A DNA stretch of 64,000 nt, from sequence record OQ873415.1; one strand, given 5' to 3'. The translations under genes were made by a program, and so were the position numbers. This document shows positions 12,571 to 58,520 of this stretch, one piece after another. Numbering within the stretch: the first letter of the stretch is position 1; the number at the start of each line of letters is the position of its first letter. The notes under the pieces were generated by a model. It saw only the letters and a program-made list of their open reading frames with translations. It made no database searches and was not told the DNA's origin. This DNA comes from Escherichia phage PECP20.

Positions 12571-15500
12571 ATGGCTACTTTAAAACAAATACAATTTAAA
12601 AGAAGCAAAACTGCAGGAGCACGTCCTGCCGCTTCAGTATTAGCCGAAGGTGAATTGGCTATAAACTTAAAAGACCGTGTACTTTTTACTAAAGATGACC
12701 AAGGAAATATTATTGATCTAGGTTTTGCTAAAGGTGGTAGTATTGACGGGAATGTTATTCATACTGGCAATTACAACCAAACTGGTGATTATACTTTAAA
12801 TGGCGTCTTCACACAGACGGGTAATTTTAATTTAACTGGTATTGCTCGAGTAACTCGCGATATTATTGCCGCCGGGCAGATTATGACTGAAGGCGGTGAA
12901 CTTATTACAAAAAGTTCAGGCACAGCACATGTTCGTTTTTTCGATAACAATAGTCGCGAACGCGGAATCATTTATGCCCCGGCTAATGATGGTTTAACTA
13001 CACAAGTACTTAATATCAGGGTTCAAGACTATGCCGCTGGTAGCGAAAGCACTTATGCATTTTCAGGCAGTGGACTATTTACTTCACCTGAAGTATCAGC
13101 ATGGAAATCTATTTCGTCTCCACAAATTCTAACCAACAAAGTCATTACTAATAATAAATCTACGGGTGATTATGACATCTATTCGATGGCAGACAATGTT
13201 CCATTGTCTGAAAGCACTACTGCTATTAATCATCTTCGTGTCATGCGTAATGCCGTTGGTTCTGGTATTTTCCATGAAGTTAAAGATAATGATGGAATAA
13301 CTTGGTATAGTGGAGATGGATTAGATGCTTATCTTTGGTCATTTACCTGGAGCGGCGGAATTAAATCAAGTCACTCAATTTCTATCGGTTTAACACCAGG
13401 TAATAAAGATTATTCAATATTAGGACCATCTAGCATTGCTTTAGGAGATAATGATACTGGATTTAAATGGCATCAAGACGGATATTATTTCAGCGTTAAT
13501 AATGGAACAAAAACGTTTTTATTTAATCCTAGCGAAACAACTAGCCTAAGAAAATTTGTAGCTGGATATTCTACTAATGGAACCGATTTAACTACTCCTC
13601 CAACTGAAAACTATGCTCTTGCTACTGTTGTGACATATCACGATAATAACGCGTTTGGAGATGGTCAGACTCTTTTGGGATATTATCAAGGCGGTAACTA
13701 TCATCATTATTTCCGCGGCAAGGGTACTACAAACATTAATACTCACGGCGGTTTGTTAGTTACTCCTGGTAATATTGACGTTATTGGCGGTTCTGTAAAT
13801 ATAGATGGTAGAAATAATTCTTCTACACTAATGTTTAGAGGCAACACAACAGGATACAGCTCGGTTGATAATATGGATATTAAAGTTTGGGGTAATACGT
13901 TTGTTGATCCAAGCGGAGGTATCCGTAAAAACATTATGGAAATTTCTGATGCAACTAGCTGGATGAGCTATATTCAAAGACTTACTACTGGCGAAGTAGA
14001 AATGAACGTTAATGGTTCATTTGAATCATCTGGTGTTACTGCTGGAGATAGAGGAGTTCACACAACAGGTGAAATTTCATCTGGAGCAATGAATGCACTT
14101 CGCATTTGGAATGCAGATTATGGAGCCATTTTTAGACGTTCAGAAGGTAGTCTTCATATTATTCCAACTGCTTACGGTGAAGGCAAAAATGGTGATATCG
14201 GTCCACTTCGCCCGTTTAGTATGGCTTTAGATACCGGTAAAGTTACTATTCCAGATTTACAATCAAGTTACAATACGTTCGCAGCGAACGGCTATATTAA
14301 ATTTGTTGGTCATGGCGCTGGCGCAGGTGGATATGATATTCAATATGCCCAAGCGGCTCCTATTTTCCAGGAAATTGATGATGATGCTGTAAGCAAATAT
14401 TATCCTATTGTTAAACAGAAGTTTTTAAATGGTAAAGCCGTTTGGTCTTTAGGTACTGAAATTAATTCGGGTACATTCGTTATTCATCATCTGAAAGAAG
14501 ATGGATCACAAGGCCATACGTCTCGTTTTAATCAAGACGGTACTGTTAACTTCCCAGATAACGTTTCTGTTGGCGGCGGTGAAGCTACTATTGCTCGCAA
14601 TGGTAATATCTGGTCTGATATCTGGAAAACGTTTACTTCTGCCGGTGATACTACAAATATTCGCGATGCTATTGCGACTCGTGTTTCGAAAGAAGGCGAC
14701 ACGATGACCGGCACTCTTTGGATTAATAAAGATGCCGCTGGAATAGTTCTTAATCCTCCTTTGACCAGTGATTCATCATTTATTCGTTCTGATACGGCCG
14801 GGGCCAATAATTGGTATATTGGTAAAGGCGGTGCCGACAATGGTCTAGGTTTTTACAGTTATGTTACACAAGGCGGTGTATATATAACAAATAACGGAGA
14901 AATATCACTTTCTCCTCAAGGCCAAGGAACATTTAATTTTAATAGAGACCGCCTCCATATAAACGGTACACAATGGGCCGCACACCAGGGCGGTGGTTGG
15001 GGAAATCAATGGAATCAAGAAGCACCGGTATTTGTAGATTTTGGTAATGTTGGTAATGATAGTTATTATCCTATTATTAAAGGAAAATCCGGTATTACTA
15101 ATGAAGGATACATATCTGGTGTAGATTTTGGTATGCGACGCATTACTAATACATGGGCACAAGGTATTATTCGTGTAGGTAATCAGGAAAACGGTTACGA
15201 CCCACAAGCTGTATATGAATTCCATCATAACGGTACTTTTTATGCTCCAAGCTTACTTAAGAGCAGTAGAGTATCAGCTGGTGGTGGTGACCCTGCATGG
15301 GGCGGGCCGTGTATTGTACTTGGAGATAACGATACCGGTTTGCTTTGGGAAAACGATGGTATTTTCAACGCATATGCAAACGGCCAAGGTGTGTTTAGTT
15401 TTAGACCTGGTTTAGCTCAGACATTCGGTGATGTTAACTTCCACTGTAATGCAGGTATGTATGTTCGTGATAACATTGATGTTAATGACGTTTATATTCG

Positions 15501-15822
15501 TTCTGATATTCGTTGTAAGTCGGAAATTAAGCTTATTAAGAACGCTCAAGAGAAATCTAAACTATTGGGCGGTTATACTTATCTGCTTAAAAACTCTGTT
15601 ACAGACGAAGTTAAACCGTCCGCAGGTTTAATTGCTCAGGAAGTTCAAGAAGTATTACCTGAACTTGTTTCTGAAGATAAAGAGACCGGACTGCTTCGTT
15701 TGAACTATAACGGTATTATTGGTTTAAATACAGCTGCAATAAACGAGCATACAGATGAAATCAAGGAATTGAAATCTGAAATTACCGAATTGAAAGCATT
15801 AATTAAATCATTGATAAAATAA
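12571..15822 (+). CDS. 37: Long tail fibre distal subunit gp37 with C-terminal intramolecular chaperone (peptidase S74-like) domain
   Basis: 1083 aa; N-terminus MATLKQIQFKRSKTAGARPAASVLAEGELAINL typical of gp37/gp12 family; C-terminal SDIRCK motif and coiled-coil tail resembling auto-cleaving chaperone domains. Confidence 0.9.
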   Translation: MATLKQIQFKRSKTAGARPAASVLAEGELAINLKDRVLFTKDDQGNIIDLGFAKGGSIDGNVIHTGNYNQTGDYTLNGVFTQTGNFNLTGIARVTRDIIAAGQIMTEGGELITKSSGTAHVRFFDNNSRERGIIYAPANDGLTTQVLNIRVQDYAAGSESTYAFSGSGLFTSPEVSAWKSISSPQILTNKVITNNKSTGDYDIYSMADNVPLSESTTAINHLRVMRNAVGSGIFHEVKDNDGITWYSGDGLDAYLWSFTWSGGIKSSHSISIGLTPGNKDYSILGPSSIALGDNDTGFKWHQDGYYFSVNNGTKTFLFNPSETTSLRKFVAGYSTNGTDLTTPPTENYALATVVTYHDNNAFGDGQTLLGYYQGGNYHHYFRGKGTTNINTHGGLLVTPGNIDVIGGSVNIDGRNNSSTLMFRGNTTGYSSVDNMDIKVWGNTFVDPSGGIRKNIMEISDATSWMSYIQRLTTGEVEMNVNGSFESSGVTAGDRGVHTTGEISSGAMNALRIWNADYGAIFRRSEGSLHIIPTAYGEGKNGDIGPLRPFSMALDTGKVTIPDLQSSYNTFAANGYIKFVGHGAGAGGYDIQYAQAAPIFQEIDDDAVSKYYPIVKQKFLNGKAVWSLGTEINSGTFVIHHLKEDGSQGHTSRFNQDGTVNFPDNVSVGGGEATIARNGNIWSDIWKTFTSAGDTTNIRDAIATRVSKEGDTMTGTLWINKDAAGIVLNPPLTSDSSFIRSDTAGANNWYIGKGGADNGLGFYSYVTQGGVYITNNGEISLSPQGQGTFNFNRDRLHINGTQWAAHQGGGWGNQWNQEAPVFVDFGNVGNDSYYPIIKGKSGITNEGYISGVDFGMRRITNTWAQGIIRVGNQENGYDPQAVYEFHHNGTFYAPSLLKSSRVSAGGGDPAWGGPCIVLGDNDTGLLWENDGIFNAYANGQGVFSFRPGLAQTFGDVNFHCNAGMYVRDNIDVNDVYIRSDIRCKSEIKLIKNAQEKSKLLGGYTYLLKNSVTDEVKPSAGLIAQEVQEVLPELVSEDKETGLLRLNYNGIIGLNTAAINEHTDEIKELKSEITELKALIKSLIK

Positions 15823-15827
15823 TAAAA

Positions 15828-15841
15828 GGGCCTTCGGGCCC
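15828..15841 (+). terminator. GC stem-loop between genes 37 and 38 (no U-tract; possible RNA stabiliser or weak terminator)
   Basis: GGGCC-TTCG-GGCCC 5 nt after gene 37 stop, followed by SD GGAGG of gene 38. Confidence 0.4.
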
Positions 15842-15852
15842 TGGAGGTTTAT

Positions 15853-16632
15853 ATGGCAGTAGTAGGAATCCCTGGTTGGATTGGGACTTCAGCCGTTGCT
15901 GAAACGGGACAAAGATGGATGACGGCTGCTTCAAGGGAACTTCGTTTAGGAAACCCTTCATGGATGTCCCAATTCGCGGGCCGTTCAAGAGAAATAATTC
16001 ACACACTTGGAGCAGACCATAACTTCAACGGTCAATGGTTCCGAGATAGATGTTTTGAGGCAGGTAGTGCACCTATAGTGTTTAATATCACCGGAAATTT
16101 GGTATCATATAGTAAAGATGTTCCATTATTCTTTATGTATGGCGATACGCCAAATGAATATGTTACTTTGAATATTCATGGTGGAGTTCATATGTGGGGA
16201 CGAGGTGGTAACGGTACTGTAAACGGAAACCCAGGCACTAATGGTGGCGATGTAATCCAAAATGATATCGGCGGAAGACTTCGTATTTGGAACTATGGTG
16301 TTATTGCATCAGGCGGTGGCGGAGGTGGTGCAGTGTCATTACAGAATAGCTGGGCGCCAAATGCTACAGCAGGTGGCGGTGGTGGTAGACCATTTGGCAT
16401 CGGCGGAGGTGGAGTTAATTGGCCGGGTGGTAATGCTAGTTATGACGCCCCGGGCGGGGCCGGTTACACTTCCCAATTCGGCGGAGGCAATGGCGGTGAT
16501 GCTGGAGGTCGTGGCGGAGATGGATGGGGTAATCACTTATCTAGATCTGGCGGTGGTGCTCCTGGCAGAGCAGTATTCGGAAGTTCACCGTCATGGGGTG
16601 CTACAGGCACAATCTACGGCTCCTGGATTTAA
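15853..16632 (+). CDS. 38: Tail fibre adhesin gp38, T2-type with glycine-rich motifs
   Basis: 259 aa; conserved N-terminus [11 protein letters not shown]...[46 protein letters not shown] followed by poly-Gly motifs and C-terminal GSWI, as recalled for T2/T6 gp38. Confidence 0.85.
16192..16560 (+). repeat. Glycine-rich motif region of gp38 adhesin (poly-GGN/GGT codon runs)
   Basis: Protein segments [36 protein letters not shown] separated by short variable segments. Confidence 0.8.
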
Positions 16633-49768: not shown

Positions 49769-50668
49769 TTATTCCTCGATTACGACATCTTCGTATTTAG
49801 GTATATTATATGGTGAAGAAATTAAAGCATTAAAGTAGATGAACTCACCAAGACCTGGATGGAATACTTCTTCAGGATTTTCGAAATATTGAATCTTCGG
49901 GCGTCCTTTAAGAATTTGATAGTACTCAGTTTTAGTTGGTTTAAAAATTCGAATCAGCGCTTCTTCAGGATACTTATTTCTGTCGAAGCTATTATTTGGA
50001 TCGGTTATATAAAGCGGTTGACCTAATTGAATTGCACATTCAACCACTTGTTCAAAACGATAACATGGGTCACTAATTCGAAATGGATGAAAAATACCAT
50101 CTAGATGAATAGGAGCCAAATCACCTACAAGACGCTGCATGATGGAAGGACGTATAACTTTCTGAGTTACGATAATCTTATTACCATCTGCACCTGCGTT
50201 AACCAGCACTTCTTTTTGACGTTCATTCAACACGGTAGTTTGAAGTGAACGATTAACTGACAACATATCGGTTTTTAAGAATTCGTCAATATAAAAACGT
50301 TGTTTATTAGGGTCTGCAGTGATATTGAAATTGAATTCTACATCAAAAGCGCCGCCATAACCAGTGATATCTGTGATTAGAAAATCACAATCATAATAAT
50401 CAATTAATGAATCAACCACAAATTCATTTTCAGTCCAGAAATATTTACGAGTGTTATACGCGTTATCTTTATACCATAATGGAACAAACTTAAATTCTGG
50501 GAAAAGACGTTCGCATTCTTTAATATCAGATGCATTACGTGGATATGTAATCACATCACCCGGATTAGCACGGTGCAAATGAAGTTGGAAGTTGCCATCC
50601 TTAAGGATAGCATACTGTCCAGTTTCATAAGACCGCATACTCAAGATTGGTACGCGGAAAATAGCCAT
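49769..50668 (-). CDS. hypothetical protein occupying T4 beta-gt locus (possible transferase)
   Basis: 299 aa; no confident motif (a DCD tripeptide after a hydrophobic stretch could be a DxD); translationally coupled to flanking genes. Confidence 0.45.
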   Translation of the reverse strand: MAIFRVPILSMRSYETGQYAILKDGNFQLHLHRANPGDVITYPRNASDIKECERLFPEFKFVPLWYKDNAYNTRKYFWTENEFVVDSLIDYYDCDFLITDITGYGGAFDVEFNFNITADPNKQRFYIDEFLKTDMLSVNRSLQTTVLNERQKEVLVNAGADGNKIIVTQKVIRPSIMQRLVGDLAPIHLDGIFHPFRISDPCYRFEQVVECAIQLGQPLYITDPNNSFDRNKYPEEALIRIFKPTKTEYYQILKGRPKIQYFENPEEVFHPGLGEFIYFNALISSPYNIPKYEDVVIEE

Positions 50669-51384
50669 TAGTCAAGGAATCCTTTAACATAATCAAAATC
50701 ACGTTCAAACACATGGGCGCTTACCATGGTATGAGTATAATCACCAACTTCTACACCGCATTCGTTAGCGATATAATGAAGTAATTTTCCTTGGAGATAA
50801 AAATCCAACTGCATAACAACAGCACAGTTCTGAGAACGCATATGACAGTGGGTATAAAGCTTACCATCACGAATATAATAAGTTACTGAGTCAGTACATG
50901 GATATTCAAGTGTTTCGTCCGAATCAAGCAAAGCCTGATCAGAACTTTCTAGAATTTGGAACACAACTCTTCGAGAGTTAGGTTTTTCTTTAAGTTCTTT
51001 TAGAAGAGTTGGTAATTGGGCCGCAATGCGAGGGCCATAGAAAGTGTTGAAGTTCGCCGGCAAAACATCTGATTTTGGTTTAGAAATAAATTTAGCGACA
51101 TTAGGATATGCCTTAAACGCTTCTTCTGCGTTGGTACCACCAGAAATCATAAACTTCCAGAAGTCTTCGGCATATTCATAAGAGATGCGGTTAATACGTG
51201 GGTCGGTCATTTTGAATGATGATGGAGTGTCAACAACTACTGTCATAGACCCAATTTCATTACAACGTCCAATACGAGAATCAGTTACGAATTCGGGGTT
51301 TTCTAAAATTTCACGATTGACTGCTTTAAATGCGGTTTGAAAATCTGCGGCTTTGATATATTTCATTGTGTTATGTTTTCCCAT
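50668..51384 (-). CDS. 42: Thymidylate-synthase-fold pyrimidine hydroxymethylase, gp42-like (dCMP hydroxymethylase)
   Basis: 238 aa; motifs NSRR, PCTDS (catalytic Cys), MRSQN and C-terminal SAHVFERDF parallel T4 gp42 NPDSRRG / MCTNT / MRSND / SLHVYSRHF as recalled. Confidence 0.6.
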   Translation of the reverse strand: MGKHNTMKYIKAADFQTAFKAVNREILENPEFVTDSRIGRCNEIGSMTVVVDTPSSFKMTDPRINRISYEYAEDFWKFMISGGTNAEEAFKAYPNVAKFISKPKSDVLPANFNTFYGPRIAAQLPTLLKELKEKPNSRRVVFQILESSDQALLDSDETLEYPCTDSVTYYIRDGKLYTHCHMRSQNCAVVMQLDFYLQGKLLHYIANECGVEVGDYTHTMVSAHVFERDFDYVKGFLD

Positions 51385-51426: not shown

Positions 51427-51666
51427 TTATTTGAATTTCTTGACAATGTTGATATAACGTAAAGCTTCAGAATCTATACTTCCAAGAACACTATGAAGGA
51501 ATGCATCAGTGTAGTATTCCAATTGAACAGGTTCTTTAATCACTTTAGCCGCTTTGGTTTCAAACAGGCCCATAAGGGCCTTTTTAAGAATTTGTTCGTT
51601 AGTGTTCAGTTTCATAGTCAAAATCTCTTCGTTAAGTTTATAATTAAAACTTTTTCTAGAAATCAT
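51427..51666 (-). CDS. hypothetical small protein
   Basis: 79-aa ORF, coupled to upstream gene (ATGA-type overlap). Confidence 0.35.
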   Translation of the reverse strand: MISRKSFNYKLNEEILTMKLNTNEQILKKALMGLFETKAAKVIKEPVQLEYYTDAFLHSVLGSIDSEALRYINIVKKFK

Positions 51667-52823
51667 TCCGGGTACCTCAAAGCGTCATCAGAGTTAGTTA
51701 TATCAATAATAGATATGGAGTTTTCTGCTAACCCGTTTTTAGATAATTGACGTTTATAATACCTTTCACAATATGTACACGTTGACCCACAGATTTCATT
51801 AGCACAATCAAAATCTGGATGTCTGAACCACCTTTTTTCTAAAAAGCCATCTAACAAAGAGGTTTCAATATTTACTGTATGTGAAAACTCAGTCTCATTT
51901 TCAAGAGTGAAAATAGTCTCTAAAGGCTTCCACAGTTCTAACAAATTACCTTCAAACTTTTCAGAAGCGTATGCTTCAAGAACTTTCAAAATGTAGTCTG
52001 TGCTACCTGTACGTCCTGAAACTTTGAATTGAGTGATACCAATATCATTATAAAGTTTCAAATCTTGAGGACGAACAAAACGAGTTCTCAACCAGTTAAA
52101 TGGGTCTGTATCACGAGCTTTAATACAGTGCTGCATAGGATATCCATTTAAGGATTTAGCATCATCAGCGGTAACATCAGTACTATGGAAAATATAGCAA
52201 GAGTCACGATAACTACAATGTGTTGTATACCCTTTACCAGCATTAGAACAGAACTCATTTACAAGAACTTCAAATATTATATTGTTCTTATTGCAAAACT
52301 CTGCTGCACGCTTCAGGAAAGAAACTGAACGGTTCTTATGAATTCCGCAACAGACCTTTTTGATGTTATATTGGTCATGTAAGTATTTGATTTGAGTTAC
52401 CGCATCGACATGTAGAATTGTTGAAACTTCAATCTCAATATCTTTATTGACTTCACGAACAATTTCCATAACAACAGGGTTAGCGATAGTAATACGCCAT
52501 ACGCCTATTGACCAAAGATACTGAACATAATCCTGAATAGCTTTCTTCTTCCACTCAACTAGTTCTCTTTTTGAACCAGGATTTATCGTGTTGAGTGTAT
52601 AGTTAAAGCAAATACCTAATTCGTTACAACGTTTAACGTAGTCTTCTAACATCTTTTTGTCAACGTCAGGAAGCCTAAAATCAGGTCTGGCTGCTACAAA
52701 AGCCATTTCTCTTGTAGAGCCATATACTTCGTTTATCAAGCTATTAGGATAGGTTTTATTGAGCTCTACGATTTTATCAAGAAGAGCTAAATCAAAATTC
52801 GTTCCGATTTTAAAAGTATTCAT
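51663..52823 (-). CDS. Cys-rich putative metalloenzyme (possible Fe-S enzyme, U32-like?)
   Basis: 386 aa; many Cys including C-terminal CANEICGSTCTYC (C-x4-C-x3-C-x2-C) and HCSYRDSC resembling the U32 signature CxSYxxxC; assignment speculative. Confidence 0.45.
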   Translation of the reverse strand: MNTFKIGTNFDLALLDKIVELNKTYPNSLINEVYGSTREMAFVAARPDFRLPDVDKKMLEDYVKRCNELGICFNYTLNTINPGSKRELVEWKKKAIQDYVQYLWSIGVWRITIANPVVMEIVREVNKDIEIEVSTILHVDAVTQIKYLHDQYNIKKVCCGIHKNRSVSFLKRAAEFCNKNNIIFEVLVNEFCSNAGKGYTTHCSYRDSCYIFHSTDVTADDAKSLNGYPMQHCIKARDTDPFNWLRTRFVRPQDLKLYNDIGITQFKVSGRTGSTDYILKVLEAYASEKFEGNLLELWKPLETIFTLENETEFSHTVNIETSLLDGFLEKRWFRHPDFDCANEICGSTCTYCERYYKRQLSKNGLAENSISIIDITNSDDALRYPE

Positions 52824-54992: not shown

Positions 54993-55136
54993 CTAGTTAA
55001 AGCATTCATACTTTGCCTGTAGACCAATCATAATCCATCCAATTACAAGTGTTGGAATCATTACTGGAGCCGTTAAGCCCCAGTAGATAGTCATGGCAAG
55101 CATCAATAGTAAAAGTCCTATTGTTATTGCTTTCAT
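54993..55136 (-). CDS. small hydrophobic protein (47 aa)
   Basis: Hand-translated: MKAITIGLLLLMLAMTIYWGLTAPVMIPTLVIGWIMIGLQAKYECFN; ATG overlaps stop of SIS gene; possible Imm-like membrane peptide. Confidence 0.3.
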   Translation of the reverse strand: MKAITIGLLLLMLAMTIYWGLTAPVMIPTLVIGWIMIGLQAKYECFN

Positions 55137-55768
55137 TGTTCGCCTCGTAACATGGCACCTAGTGCACCACCAGGGTGGAACTTAAGGAAGTCATTAGAGG
55201 TAAATCCACGTTCAGACGAAAGGTTGATAGCAAACGTATCGATAAGCGCTAACAACAATGTAGTGGACATGGTCGGAGCCAGAGAATTCTCATCAACCTC
55301 TACCGCGATGCCTGTACAGAACGTATAATCAAAAAGAGCTTCGTATTCTTGCGGAATGTCAGGGTTACAATGTAACAGAATCTGTTTAACCTGAGGACGA
55401 ATCATACGAAGATGTTTAGCAACACCTATCATTTCTTCAGTCTTACCAGAACGACTGATGTGAACTAATACATCATTAGGTGCAATAAATCCTGCGTCGC
55501 CATGAGAATAATGCCCGGTGTTCAAATACATGCTAGGAATACCTAGTGAAGCAAAAGTCTCGGAAGCTTTAGTTGCGATATTAGCGTTCTTACCAACACC
55601 TGTAATAATTACTCGGCTTTCATAATTACTCAGTCCAGGGCGACGAAGAGTTTCAAGAATAGCATTATATCGGGCAGAGTTTTGACTAATTACTTTAGCC
55701 ATAGTGGCAAGAGATGAAGCTTGTTTTACGATTGCGTCAATAGCGATAGTGATTGGTGTAGTTTTCAT
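55133..55768 (-). CDS. SIS-domain sugar-phosphate isomerase (arabinose-5-phosphate isomerase KdsD/GutQ-like, no CBS domains)
   Basis: 211 aa; ITGVGKNANIA...HGDAGFIAPNDVLVHISRSGKTEE...APTMSTTLLLALIDTF...FLKFHPGGALG parallels the KdsD SIS domain motifs as recalled. Confidence 0.65.
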   Translation of the reverse strand: MKTTPITIAIDAIVKQASSLATMAKVISQNSARYNAILETLRRPGLSNYESRVIITGVGKNANIATKASETFASLGIPSMYLNTGHYSHGDAGFIAPNDVLVHISRSGKTEEMIGVAKHLRMIRPQVKQILLHCNPDIPQEYEALFDYTFCTGIAVEVDENSLAPTMSTTLLLALIDTFAINLSSERGFTSNDFLKFHPGGALGAMLRGEQ

Positions 55769-55808: not shown

Positions 55809-58520
55809 TCAAAAATCGAACATATCGAACAGAGATGCTTTCTTCTCGTAATCGAGTTTCGCTGCTGATGTGAATCCTTCAAGTGGTTTAATAAATGTCT
55901 TCTCAAGGAGAACAGTGTAGTCCATCCAATGAAGTACGTCGTCTTTAATTAAATCTGTGATTTCAGTACCAGAAGGCCATGCGATACATTTATCACCGAA
56001 CGGGTTTCCATCACGTAAAGGCAGAACGTATACCTTTTCGCCTTCTACAACTTGTGGAGCATCAATATTACCTTTGATAGCTCTGTTATATGTCAGAATT
56101 CCACGAATATGGAACGGGCATTTAGGACCAGGGAATCCACCAACGTCATATTTAGCAATGTTATTCGCAGAAGATACTGACGCGATGCTAATATAATTCA
56201 ATTGACGGAATTCTTTTTCAAACTCTTTAAAATATTCTTGTAATGATTCTTCACCTTCTTGAAGCATACGACGAATACATTCTTTAAGAGCTTTCTGTAC
56301 TGCTTTAGGGGTCGAAGATTTCTGTGTTTCGAGACCCATGATTTTGAGTTTAGGCTCAGCGTATCTGGTTCCTTCCATATCCCACACGTTTAATGCATAA
56401 CGTTTCTTACCAGTCCAGAATCCACCAATACCTTTAGAACCGAGTGGAGGACCAGCAATAGCTTCTCGGTCCATGAACATCAAATGTTGCTTATTATTCA
56501 TGTATTCACACATTTCACGGAAACCTCTATCAATAGCCGGTTCCATACGTTCACGAGCGAACTTATCTAAGAAGTCTACCCAATGGTTGGTATCACGGAA
56601 TTTAGATTCACCAACCTTATCAATAATTTTATCTGCAGATACGTAAATAGAGTCTGTATCACCATAAAGAACGAAAGCTTCACCTTCTGTACCACAAACT
56701 TCGTTCAGATATTCATTAACTTTACGTTCAATCCACTGTAAAGCCATTTGACCAAATGTTGTGATTGCAGTTGCATTACGCAAATCGTAATAACGGAACC
56801 AAACGTTACCAAGTGCACCATAAAGCGAGTTGATGAGCAATTTACGGTTAATTTGTGCAGTCATACCTGCAACTTCAGTACGTTGAGCTCTAAACAACAT
56901 TTCATTAAGAGATTTAGCAGACAACTTTTTAATCTTTTCTTTAATCTCATCGCTGAAGTCGAAACGATAATCAACATCTAATGGTTCGTCAACAGAAAGA
57001 TTAGGATTATGCAACGCCTCTTTAATTATTTCACCATTACGTTGAGCCGCAAGCATGTAACCTTTATGTTCTTTACGTTGATTAAAGACCTTAGTGATTT
57101 CAGTTGGAACTACACCATCACGGTCTTTATAATACATCATGCCATTAGGAGAACAACTGTACACATCTGAAGGACGTTCAGCGATTGCGTTAATATAATC
57201 ATGCAGTGGAGCTACTTTAAACGTTCCTGCTATTGTTTCCGGGCTAATATTCACTTGGCGAATAATACTTGGATACAGGGATGTAAGGTCGAAACTCATT
57301 ACATATTTGTATCGATTTGGAATAGGTTCCTTAACAAAAGCGCCAGGATAAGGTTGAACCGGGTGAGAACGACCTTGTGGAATCACCTTGTTCTGCTCTT
57401 TAAGGCTATTAAAAATAATAGCATCCCATGTTTTAATTGGGCTAAACACAGATTGAATCTGTATCTTAGCATAATAACCCATGTCCAAACTCAAGTTGAT
57501 GAACTGACGCTTAGCATCAATTTGCAATACACGATACACGTCGATAATGTTATAAGAAATATATCGTTGGTGATTGCTTTCACGAAGCTTAGAAATAGGG
57601 CCGTCATATTTCAGTTTACCAACGTTCAATTCAAATTCTGAAATGTAATCCAGAGAATACGACGGTTGATTGGTAAAAGAGAATTTTTTGTAAAGGTCAA
57701 TGTAATCAAGAACAGAGATACCGAACAATGTAATGATTTCACGAGAACCATACATGTTTTCGATAACTTTAACACGAGTTTTACGATGTGGTGATAAACG
57801 TTTTGCTGTGGATTCACCAAAAATATTCTTGATTCTGTTATACACATATGGAATATCAAATGACTCAACGTTCCATCCAGTCAAAATGACAGGAGTTTTC
57901 TGTTGCCAGAAGTTGAGATATTCCATCAACAATTCTTTTTCGTTATCGAACGGCATATAAATGATTTTATCGATAATTTCGGATGGAACTTCATCACCAC
58001 CTTGTTCTTGAAGCTTAGCAGCGATTTCAATAGACCATTCTTCTACATTACCATATGGAGAATTCAATAGATCAAATACGTAGAACCTGTCGTCAATTGA
58101 GTCATAATGAGTGATAGCATCAATCGGATGTTTTGCTTGTGACGGCTCAGGGAACCCATCCGGAGATGTTACTTCGATGTCGAAGTTAGCCACACGAATT
58201 TTTGTATGGTCGTATTTGATTTCATAGTTATAAGTGTCAGACAAATACGCCAATTTGAAATCGTCCATGCCAAGTGCTTCAAGTCCGATATCTTCCATGC
58301 GTTTAATCCATTGGGAGGCATCACGCATATTAGCGAACAACTTACGAGTACACGGCTTACCGTAGATATCGAAATATTTCGTAGCCTGACTTTCTGGACA
58401 ATGTGCAAACAACGATGGCTTATACTCTACTTCACGAGTACGTTCACGGCCATTAGAATCGATGTAACGTTCAAAAATTGAATCACCAATCTGTTCAACC
58501 GTTAAGTAAAATTCTTTCAT
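55809..58520 (-). CDS. 43: DNA polymerase gp43 (family B, with 3'-5' exonuclease)
   Basis: 903 aa; N-terminus MKEFYLTVEQIGDSIFERYIDSNGRERTREVEYKPSLFAHCPESQATKYFDIYGKPCTRKLF and exo motif NFDIEV match RB69 gp43 as recalled; pol motifs SLYPSII, YGDTDS. Confidence 0.95.
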   Translation of the reverse strand: MKEFYLTVEQIGDSIFERYIDSNGRERTREVEYKPSLFAHCPESQATKYFDIYGKPCTRKLFANMRDASQWIKRMEDIGLEALGMDDFKLAYLSDTYNYEIKYDHTKIRVANFDIEVTSPDGFPEPSQAKHPIDAITHYDSIDDRFYVFDLLNSPYGNVEEWSIEIAAKLQEQGGDEVPSEIIDKIIYMPFDNEKELLMEYLNFWQQKTPVILTGWNVESFDIPYVYNRIKNIFGESTAKRLSPHRKTRVKVIENMYGSREIITLFGISVLDYIDLYKKFSFTNQPSYSLDYISEFELNVGKLKYDGPISKLRESNHQRYISYNIIDVYRVLQIDAKRQFINLSLDMGYYAKIQIQSVFSPIKTWDAIIFNSLKEQNKVIPQGRSHPVQPYPGAFVKEPIPNRYKYVMSFDLTSLYPSIIRQVNISPETIAGTFKVAPLHDYINAIAERPSDVYSCSPNGMMYYKDRDGVVPTEITKVFNQRKEHKGYMLAAQRNGEIIKEALHNPNLSVDEPLDVDYRFDFSDEIKEKIKKLSAKSLNEMLFRAQRTEVAGMTAQINRKLLINSLYGALGNVWFRYYDLRNATAITTFGQMALQWIERKVNEYLNEVCGTEGEAFVLYGDTDSIYVSADKIIDKVGESKFRDTNHWVDFLDKFARERMEPAIDRGFREMCEYMNNKQHLMFMDREAIAGPPLGSKGIGGFWTGKKRYALNVWDMEGTRYAEPKLKIMGLETQKSSTPKAVQKALKECIRRMLQEGEESLQEYFKEFEKEFRQLNYISIASVSSANNIAKYDVGGFPGPKCPFHIRGILTYNRAIKGNIDAPQVVEGEKVYVLPLRDGNPFGDKCIAWPSGTEITDLIKDDVLHWMDYTVLLEKTFIKPLEGFTSAAKLDYEKKASLFDMFDF

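Follow-up and report, generated by a model that had tools for sequence, protein, structure and literature searches.

A U32-family protein of RB69-like phages as a candidate oxygen-independent hydroxylase in cytosine modification

The DNA analysed here is a 64,000-nucleotide stretch of Escherichia phage PECP20 (sequence record OQ873415.1), hereafter called the window. It carries on its minus strand a gene for a cysteine-rich protein of 386 amino acids (aa) that belongs to the peptidase U32 family and is the orthologue of RB69 gp50 (RB69p050). Judging from its sequence, predicted fold and gene neighbourhoods, we consider it somewhat probable that this protein is a hydroxylase that modifies C5 of cytosine independently of O2 and depends on prephenate; our confidence in a specific substrate, deoxycytidine monophosphate (dCMP), is lower than that. 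The gene and the parts of its product that matter for the argument are the following.

51663..52823, minus strand: U32-family protein, RB69 gp50 (RB69p050) orthologue, 386 aa, ATG start (open reading frame (ORF), Pfam, PHROG, AlphaFold2, hhalign, ratio of nonsynonymous to synonymous substitution rates (dN/dS))
51966..52544, minus strand: match to the Peptidase_U32 model, residues 94-286 (Pfam)
52125..52250, minus strand: central cysteine set C192-x10-C203-x5-C209-x23-C233, presumed [4Fe-4S] site (alignments)
52197..52220, minus strand: HCSYRDSC, residues 202-209, within the central cysteine set (translation)
51768..51806, minus strand: C-terminal Cys4 knuckle CANEICGSTCTYC, that is C340-x4-C345-x3-C349-x2-C352 (translation, alignments)

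An earlier note on this DNA, made from the sequence alone, had described the reading frame and both cysteine motifs, which agree exactly with the minus-strand sequence, and had remarked on the density of cysteines. This density is real: the 13 cysteines make up 3.4% of the protein, against a mean of 1.06% over the window's 64 ORFs of 100 aa or more. Conservation of the cysteines among homologues, which the same note had proposed as a check, is pronounced, as 10 of the 13 never vary among 20 aligned homologues reaching down to 46% identity, and C192, C203 and C233 are found in all 122 full-length representatives of the wider family. In the same 122 representatives, C209 is a cysteine in 60% and otherwise often a histidine, and the C-terminal Cys4 is kept in about 94%, with the spacing C-x3/4-C-x2/3-C-x2-C. 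The gene is under purifying selection (dN/dS 0.05-0.07 against orthologues in other genera). Since the cysteines are conserved across homologues and dN/dS is this low, the cysteine richness is no chance feature. The family is large, with 423 cluster representatives at E<=1e-30 and 1628 at E<=1e-3 in a profile search of the full library.

The protein is a genuine but divergent member of the U32 family, as the earlier note had tentatively suggested. The Pfam model PF01136 matches residues 94-286 with 42.2 bits (gathering score 22.4, E 7.3e-11) and is precomputed on nearly all homologues, and the PHROG of the protein (5757) is labelled 'peptidase'. An AlphaFold2 model built on the alignment (predicted local distance difference test 87.6, predicted template-modelling score 0.88) was compared with the PDB by Foldseek, another check named in the earlier note; the top match is the U32 structure 5D88 (Mk0906; E 1.4e-7, template-modelling score 0.68 on the target), and the rest are generic triosephosphate isomerase (TIM) barrels. 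A sequence search of the PDB with the protein gave no match, and the kinship with 5D88 is visible by fold alone. Mk0906, the sole solved U32 structure in the library searched, has no assigned function, is 11% identical to the phage protein and lacks the C-terminal extension and cysteine knuckle of the phage clade. When the family profile was compared with the four U32 paralogues of E. coli, RlhA came out best (hhalign E 7e-5), TrhP was weak (E 0.005), and UbiU and UbiV had probabilities below 5%; the NCBIfam UbiU model scores 18.5 bits against a cut-off of 440. E190, C203 and C209 are in register with E161, C169 and C176 of RlhA, all three of which are essential in RlhA, and a joint alignment reveals a K267-x2-G270-R271 motif common to the phage protein, RlhA, TrhP and UbiU. 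The central set C192/C203/C209/C233 is presumed to hold a [4Fe-4S] cluster, and the C-terminal knuckle, a hallmark of the clade that is absent from canonical U32 proteins, may be a second metal site, either Fe-S or Zn. The zinc-binding transferase that the earlier note had offered as an alternative found no support.

The last three cysteines of the knuckle together with an invariant tyrosine (C-G-S-T-C-T-Y-C) mimic the CX3CXphiC motif of radical S-adenosylmethionine (SAM) enzymes. A radical SAM reading of C345-x3-C349-x-Y-C352 was rejected: the search against this family, also named in the earlier note, gave no Radical_SAM Pfam match at E<0.1, and the motif lies C-terminal to the barrel, has a fourth cysteine (C340) and varies in spacing within the family (CX3-4CX2-3CX2C). 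Because of this varying spacing among relatives and the fourth cysteine, we argue that the likeness is coincidental.

The family name and automatic annotations would make the protein a collagenase-like peptidase processing a phage or host protein, and this is what most GenBank records call it. We know of no catalytic mechanism for U32 proteolysis, however; the gene context consists exclusively of nucleotide and DNA-modification genes, and the conserved residues are metal-type cysteine arrays and the K-x2-G-R motif of hydroxylation-linked U32 proteins. Although some U32 proteins were historically reported as collagenases (PMC5727448), we regard a peptidase function as extremely improbable.

The gene lies inside a known pathway. 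The window is 99.6% identical to Escherichia phage p000v (Mosigvirus, RB69-like), and the nucleotide-modification cluster in which the earlier note had placed the gene is the arabinosyl-5-hydroxycytosine pathway of RB69-like phages (PMC13326640). The RB69 version of this cluster makes arabinosylated 5-hydroxycytosine (5hoC) DNA, and the sugar is ordinary arabinose (PMC13326640). All genes of the cluster are on the minus strand, in the order DNA polymerase, arabinose-5-phosphate (A5P) isomerase, nucleotidyltransferase/kinase, HAD phosphatase, U32, a 79-aa ORF, ThyA homologue, glycosyltransferase, Tmk-like kinase and UvsX.

55809..58520, minus strand: DNA polymerase
55133..55768, minus strand: SIS-domain A5P isomerase, RB69 gp55 (PMC13326640)
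53266..54951, minus strand: bifunctional sugar-1-phosphate nucleotidyltransferase and kinase, RB69 gp52:53 / AfhE-like (Pfam; PMC13326640)
52880..53281, minus strand: HAD phosphatase, RB69 gp51 / AfhF-like (PHROG; PMC13326640)
51427..51666, minus strand: 79-aa ORF at the position of RB69 gp49, PHROG 8601; its start overlaps the U32 stop (ATGA)
50668..51384, minus strand: ThyA homologue, the 5-hydroxy-dCMP synthase dependent on flavin mononucleotide (FMN) and O2, RB69 gp48 orthologue (E143/N169/D177; PMC13326640)
49769..50668, minus strand: 299-aa glycosyltransferase, RB69 gp46:47, arabinosyltransferase 1, with PHROG 3891 relatives (PMC13326640)
49219..49767, minus strand: thymidylate-kinase-like nucleotide kinase, RB69 gp45 (PMC13326640)

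The ThyA homologue of RB69, gp48, makes 5-hydroxy-dCMP, binds FMN and, according to 18O2 labelling, takes the oxygen from O2, and the gp46:47 glycosyltransferase is thought to add the first arabinose to 5hoC (PMC13326640). The ThyA homologue of the window carries the residues E143, N169 and D177 that are diagnostic of this synthase. The cluster thus contains, two genes downstream of U32, an enzyme that makes the very product we propose for the U32 protein; RB69 gp48, DLP3 gp80 and the HY126 enzyme differ from it in having the ThyA fold and FMN and in needing O2, and their activity is experimentally proven (PMC13326640), whereas that of the U32 protein is proposed from sequence and context. Within the literature searched, nothing ties phage U32 proteins or chorismate mutases to DNA hydroxylation; the 2018 RB69 paper assigns the U32 gene no function.

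A feature that points towards prephenate is the linkage of U32 to chorismate mutase, which recurs in several independent arrangements. Kanagawa-, Winkler-, Teguna-, Marfa- and Gualtarvirus and Shewanella phage Thanatos encode a true AroQ chorismate mutase whose gene overlaps the U32 stop, and the small ORF at the U32 stop of Serratia phage LC53 and Enterobacter phage Entb_45 matches CM_2 with 44.6 and 40.9 bits (gathering score 27). A profile of six phage mutases aligns with 1YBZ, a mutase of Pyrococcus (E 7.5e-16), and retains the catalytic residues. By tblastn the phage mutase was found in 51 records; among the 40 matches listed, all are from Straboviridae of Enterobacterales or Shewanella, and in all 40 the match lies in this cluster, beside or under the U32 and ThyA-homologue genes. 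In Shewanella phage Thanatos-1 (L010, 3673-7240) the order is ThyA homologue, glycosyltransferase, kinase, U32, chorismate mutase, so that the ThyA homologue has moved upstream while U32 and the mutase are still an overlapping pair; in the published account of this phage, a deoxypentose is reported to be O-linked to cytosine, and neither TH1_065 (U32) nor TH1_066 (mutase) is assigned (PMC12838424).

Elsewhere the mutase comes in other forms. Four loci from IMG/VR, in three arrangements as L042 and L043 are near-duplicates, have a fusion of 3-deoxy-D-arabino-heptulosonate 7-phosphate (DAHP) synthase and chorismate mutase next to a U32 gene whose product is about 49% identical; wherever the junction can be seen, a single small ORF separates the fusion from U32, which lies downstream of it.

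L041, 8399-9430: DAHP synthase-chorismate mutase fusion
L043, 7290-8354: DAHP synthase-chorismate mutase fusion
L045, 8323-9384: DAHP synthase-chorismate mutase fusion
L042, 3-968: DAHP synthase-chorismate mutase fusion

DAHP synthases with a C-terminal chorismate mutase domain are known from Bacteroidota such as Prevotella and Porphyromonas. At a fifth locus a stand-alone mutase begins at the U32 stop, and in a metagenome-assembled genome (MAG) of the Erysipelotrichales a mutase lies 2 kb from U32. In 5 of 28 distant loci, a DAHP_synth_1 gene lies no more than three genes away from U32. At another locus (L014, 9145-9891) the phage DAHP_synth_1 protein has no mutase domain and, since an A5P isomerase adjoins it, could be an enzyme similar to 3-deoxy-D-manno-octulosonate 8-phosphate synthase. 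The literature searched holds no discussion of phage-encoded enzymes of shikimate-prephenate entry or exit as auxiliary metabolic genes.

In the window, the slot of the mutase is taken by the 79-aa ORF, which is translationally coupled to the U32 gene by the ATGA overlap. Its positional counterparts in other genera do match the AroQ CM_2 profile and have the catalytic Arg/Lys/Glu/Gln residues, and it shares slot and length with the chorismate mutase of Entb_45 and is predicted to form three helices. A degenerate chorismate mutase was considered and rejected, as the ORF gave no Pfam or NCBIfam match at E values up to 10, a probability of 0.2% against the phage mutase family in hhalign, and no match to the PDB by sequence or fold. 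Its homologues occur within Mosigvirus only, at 73-96% identity, and it is less conserved than U32. The ORF is either a replacement of the mutase or a mutase diverged beyond recognition.

A further argument for a hydroxylase comes from loci outside the Straboviridae. U32 homologues of 34-58% identity occur in uncultured phages, on a 466-kb contig and on contigs of 40-200 kb with genes for terminase, holin and the DNA polymerase III alpha subunit, and in a few bacterial MAGs and genomes. We examined a set of 39 such non-Straboviridae loci, 25 of them from IMG/VR, with flanks of 8-10 kb around U32. A broad ThyA profile applied with no filters found no ThyA homologue of the 5-hydroxy-dCMP synthase type within 8-10 kb of U32 in any of the 39; the only ThyA-fold gene near U32, at a single locus, has canonical thymidylate-synthase residues. 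The rest of the pathway is often there. Of the 25 IMG/VR loci, 18 have a homologue of the gp46:47 glycosyltransferase, whose gene often overlaps the U32 start; an A5P isomerase and an AfhE-like nucleotidyltransferase/kinase occur in about half of the 25, and some distant loci encode TAGT-like or DXD glycosyltransferases or a UDP-galactopyranose mutase. The commonest other neighbours are Tmk-like kinases, pyrophosphatases of the dUTPase_2 and MazG types, dCMP deaminases and genes of the UDG family. The distant clusters hence consist of nucleotide-pool enzymes and sugar transferases of a 5hoC-type pathway with no known hydroxylase near U32. With these genes present and a known hydroxylase missing, U32 is plainly the candidate for the hydroxylation step.

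One of these loci, in a 61-kb uncultured phage (L017, 5777-14179), has U32 flanked by a gp46:47-like, a TAGT-like (with a paralogue) and a DXD glycosyltransferase, a dUTPase/DCD gene and a UDP-galactopyranose mutase; no ThyA homologue is present in the 17 kb seen, and the arrangement recalls the galactofuranosyl-5hoC of Rhizobium phage RL38J1. A four-gene cassette ending in U32 is common to the genomes of several gut anaerobes (Phocaeicola faecalis, Tannerella, Lachnospiraceae, Bacillota); its order is GP88-family protein, fusion of a guanylate-kinase-like domain with a SAM methyltransferase, protein of about 265 aa without a Pfam match, U32.

L005, 7135-11098: four-gene cassette
L062, L065, L066 and L067, upstream of U32 at about 8001: four-gene cassette

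The composition of this cassette suggests hydroxylation of a mononucleotide followed by O-methylation, that is, a 5-methoxy-pyrimidine, and the kinase-methyltransferase fusion beside U32 points to a mononucleotide substrate. The L005 locus has in addition genes for NT5C, dNK, a nucleoside 2-deoxyribosyltransferase and a protein of the radical SAM/SPASM type, and at 15227-16360 it encodes a second U32 paralogue that is very divergent.

In its distribution, U32 is seen only in phages of facultative anaerobes and in bacterial genomes of anaerobe lineages. Whereas the ThyA-type synthase was found in 373 phage records, including 57 from Acinetobacter phages and about 20 from Rhizobium phages, U32 was found in 221, all from phages of Enterobacterales or Shewanella. 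All 57 Acinetobacter phages and the roughly 20 Rhizobium phages with the synthase lack U32, although they produce the same base. Acinetobacter and Rhizobium hosts are obligate aerobes, and none of the 221 U32 records is from a phage of obligate aerobes. Among bacteria, the clade occurs in 8 of 100,044 species genomes (one genome per species), namely in Lachnospiraceae (twice), Erysipelotrichales, Bacillota, Angelakisella, Tannerella, Phocaeicola faecalis and BRC1, lineages that are known as anaerobes.

The U32 gene lies immediately upstream of the ThyA-type synthase in all 15 Straboviridae loci sampled, and the two conserved cysteine clusters of its product suit electron transfer. This could mean that the protein is the redox partner of the synthase, as an Fe-S reductase regenerating reduced FMN, or a reductase acting on the sugar or heterocycle of the arabinose precursor or the base. 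To our knowledge no U32 protein is a reductase, and 39 distant loci have U32 without a ThyA-type synthase nearby, while the ThyA pathway operates in Acinetobacter, Rhizobium and Dhakavirus phages that have no U32. The linkage to chorismate mutase and DAHP synthase would have no rationale for a flavin or sugar reductase. The sole published annotation of RB69p050 is a table entry based on structure matches, 'sugar or heterocycle reductase', without experiment or discussion (PMC13326640 Table 1), and Thanatos, which carries U32, has been reported to have a deoxypentose; no function is given to its U32 gene (PMC12838424). RB69, however, also has the U32 gene and yet its sugar is ordinary arabinose. 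Taken together, this makes a reductase or redox partner decidedly unlikely.

Several observations weigh against the hydroxylase proposal. The absence of the ThyA-type synthase from the distant phages holds for 8-10 kb around U32 only and not for whole contigs. No U32 protein has yet been shown to hydroxylate in vitro (PMC10990095). The PROSITE-type signature E-x-F-x2-G-[SA]-[LIVM]-C-x4-G-x-C-x-[LIVM]-S, which was validated on RlhA, TrhP and UbiU, has no match in the phage protein when used as a regular expression, while it matches those three and does not match UbiV. The canonical CX6CX15CX3-4C motif of RlhA and TrhP likewise has no match, only two of its four cysteines being in register; the phage protein keeps E190-F191 as well as C203 and C209 with Y-I-x-H-S, but has 10 residues inserted and CX5C instead of CX6C. 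Accordingly, the resemblance of HCSYRDSC to the U32 signature, which the earlier note had pointed out, stands in that C203 and C209 align with the signature cysteine pair, but not in the spacing or the full signature. The third and fourth canonical cysteines are missing and the clade-invariant C192 and C233, present instead, could complete a site; UbiU and UbiV deviate from the canonical motif as well. Mosigvirus, the genus of the window itself, has no recognisable chorismate mutase, and a search of the rest of the 64-kb window and of the first metagenomic loci gave none. As to host ecology, the correlations are uncorrected for phylogeny and confounded by it, and Dhakaviruses and some Enterobacter and Kosakonia phages, whose hosts are facultative anaerobes, have the ThyA-type synthase without U32. 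Because these phages run the synthase without U32, U32 is not required for the pathway. In Escherichia phage WG01 (Dhakavirus; L060, 2878-7589) the HAD phosphatase and kinase are directly followed by the ThyA-type synthase, with no U32, no mutase and no recognisable annotation of an A5P isomerase in the cluster. Since the phosphatase and kinase here run straight to the synthase, U32, alone or together with the mutase, acts like an optional cassette placed between phosphatase and synthase.

In spite of these points we favour the cytosine hydroxylase, for which the characterised relatives of the protein provide a possible mechanism. RlhA requires prephenate, according to genetic evidence, and Fe-S biogenesis (PMC5727448), and prephenate is the oxygen donor of the UbiU/V pathway according to 18O labelling, the aerobic counterparts in that pathway being flavin/O2 hydroxylases (PMC10990095). 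The Fe-S cofactor, the use of prephenate, dCMP rather than DNA as the substrate, the product and the anaerobic role are what we infer for the phage protein. By analogy to the UbiU/V case (PMC10990095), the central cysteines would hold a [4Fe-4S] cluster and the enzyme would remove two electrons from the pyrimidine ring of dCMP; prephenate would next undergo decarboxylative aromatisation and so pass hydroxide to C5, yielding 5-hydroxy-dCMP, phenylpyruvate and CO2. The electrons would leave via the Fe-S cluster or clusters, and the C-terminal Cys4 knuckle may be a built-in relay, unless it is a structural Zn site. 5-Hydroxy-dCMP would enter the known route through the deoxynucleoside monophosphate (dNMP) kinase, the polymerase and the arabinosyltransferases. 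The U32 enzyme would in this way be the anaerobic isozyme of the FMN/O2-dependent ThyA-type synthase and make fully modified DNA possible in an anoxic host. Because the window has no mutase, prephenate in Mosigvirus would come from PheA and TyrA of the host. From genome size and GC content we estimate that a full burst would take on the order of 10^7 hydroxylations, a demand that would account for the monofunctional chorismate mutase or the DAHP synthase found in many of these phages.

In its full extent the proposal is that the phage U32 clade is the first prephenate-dependent, O2-independent hydroxylase to act on a DNA precursor; that in RB69-like phages it serves without oxygen as the counterpart of the flavin/O2 synthase; that in many uncultured phages of strict anaerobes it is the sole source of the hydroxyl group, to which a sugar or, in some bacterial cassettes, a methyl group is then added; and that some phages add their own chorismate mutase or DAHP synthase for the oxygen donor. 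This whole we put forward tentatively, as possible rather than probable.

Paired routes of this kind have precedents in E. coli, in UbiU/V versus UbiI/H/F and TrhP versus TrhO, and T-even phages carry both NrdAB and NrdDG. One parallel in logic would be that of UbiU/UbiV and UbiI/H/F, in which a flavin/O2 route serves in air and a U32 Fe-S route with prephenate serves without O2; UbiU/V, however, are a heterodimer that needs UbiT and acts on a lipid quinone, while the phage protein is encoded by a single gene without a partner paralogue. TrhP (YegQ) is similarly a U32 member tied to C5 hydroxylation of a pyrimidine (tRNA ho5U34) and redundant with an O2-dependent enzyme, TrhO, but has a tRNA uridine as substrate, 453 aa and the canonical CX6CX15CX3C. 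A parallel in chemistry would be RlhA (YdcP), the 5-hydroxycytidine-2501 synthase of E. coli 23S rRNA, which is from the same Pfam family and with which the phage protein is proposed to share prephenate- and Fe-S-dependent hydroxylation of cytosine C5. RlhA differs in its 653 aa, its DUF3656 and C-terminal cysteine region, and in acting on pre-50S particles, and identity is about 19%; the phage protein for its part lacks the CX3C (third and fourth cysteines), has its own C192/C233 and C-terminal CX4CX3CX2C knuckle, and is encoded among deoxynucleotide genes.

These relatives also raise the question of whether the substrate is a polymer, that is, cytosine in replicated phage DNA, or host or phage RNA (tRNA U34, rRNA C2501), whose hydroxylation would tune translation in infection. 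In favour of a polymer, the best E. coli match is RlhA, and T-even phages encode tRNAs. The characterised U32 enzymes of nucleic acids all act on polymers, namely pre-50S particles and tRNA (PMC5727448). On the other hand, the host already has TrhP, TrhO and RlhA, the phage protein lacks the C-terminal domains of RlhA and TrhP (386 aa versus 653 and 453), and its neighbours across phyla are not RNA-modification genes but dNMP kinases, dCTPase/dUTPase-like enzymes, dCMP deaminases, DNA base glycosyltransferases and the fusion of a nucleoside monophosphate kinase with a methyltransferase. A polymer substrate therefore appears rather unlikely to us; hydroxylation at the DNA level is possible, and the RNA option fits the gene context poorly. 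Because of the nucleotide-pool neighbours and the kinase-methyltransferase fusion in the bacterial cassettes, we prefer dCMP over DNA as the putative substrate of the hydroxylase.

The existence and family of the gene were already known, as it has long been annotated as a U32 peptidase. What appears to be new, within the literature searched, is its reading as an O2-independent, prephenate-dependent DNA-base hydroxylase, the phage chorismate mutase and DAHP synthase as a prephenate supply line, and a large clade of uncultured phages in which U32 would replace the ThyA-type enzyme. The arabinosyl-5hoC pathway was published in 2025-2026 with a hydroxylase that needs O2, while the enteric hosts live largely without oxygen and the phages destroy the dCTP pool; an O2-independent hydroxylase would close this oxygen gap. 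If so, gp50 and the host genes pheA and tyrA would be needed for phage growth only under anoxia. Prephenate-dependent hydroxylation by a U32 protein has never been reconstituted in vitro (PMC10990095), and dCMP, as a soluble mononucleotide, would be the most tractable U32 substrate so far and could allow the first reconstitution. The phage chorismate mutases and DAHP synthases would then count as auxiliary metabolic genes whose role is to provide a donor of oxygen atoms. The hundreds of homologues in uncultured phages, encoded beside DNA glycosyltransferases or methyltransferases, suggest that phages of anaerobes contain C5-oxygenated DNA bases not yet described; this would bear on restriction evasion and gut phage therapy.

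Finally, a second ThyA gene is present in the window, at 1319-2176 on the minus strand. It is canonical and td-like (phmmer E 1e-72 to E. coli ThyA), with L143, D169 and N177 retained, and lies about 50 kb from the 5-hydroxy-dCMP synthase, so that one phage carries two ThyA-fold enzymes of different chemistry.

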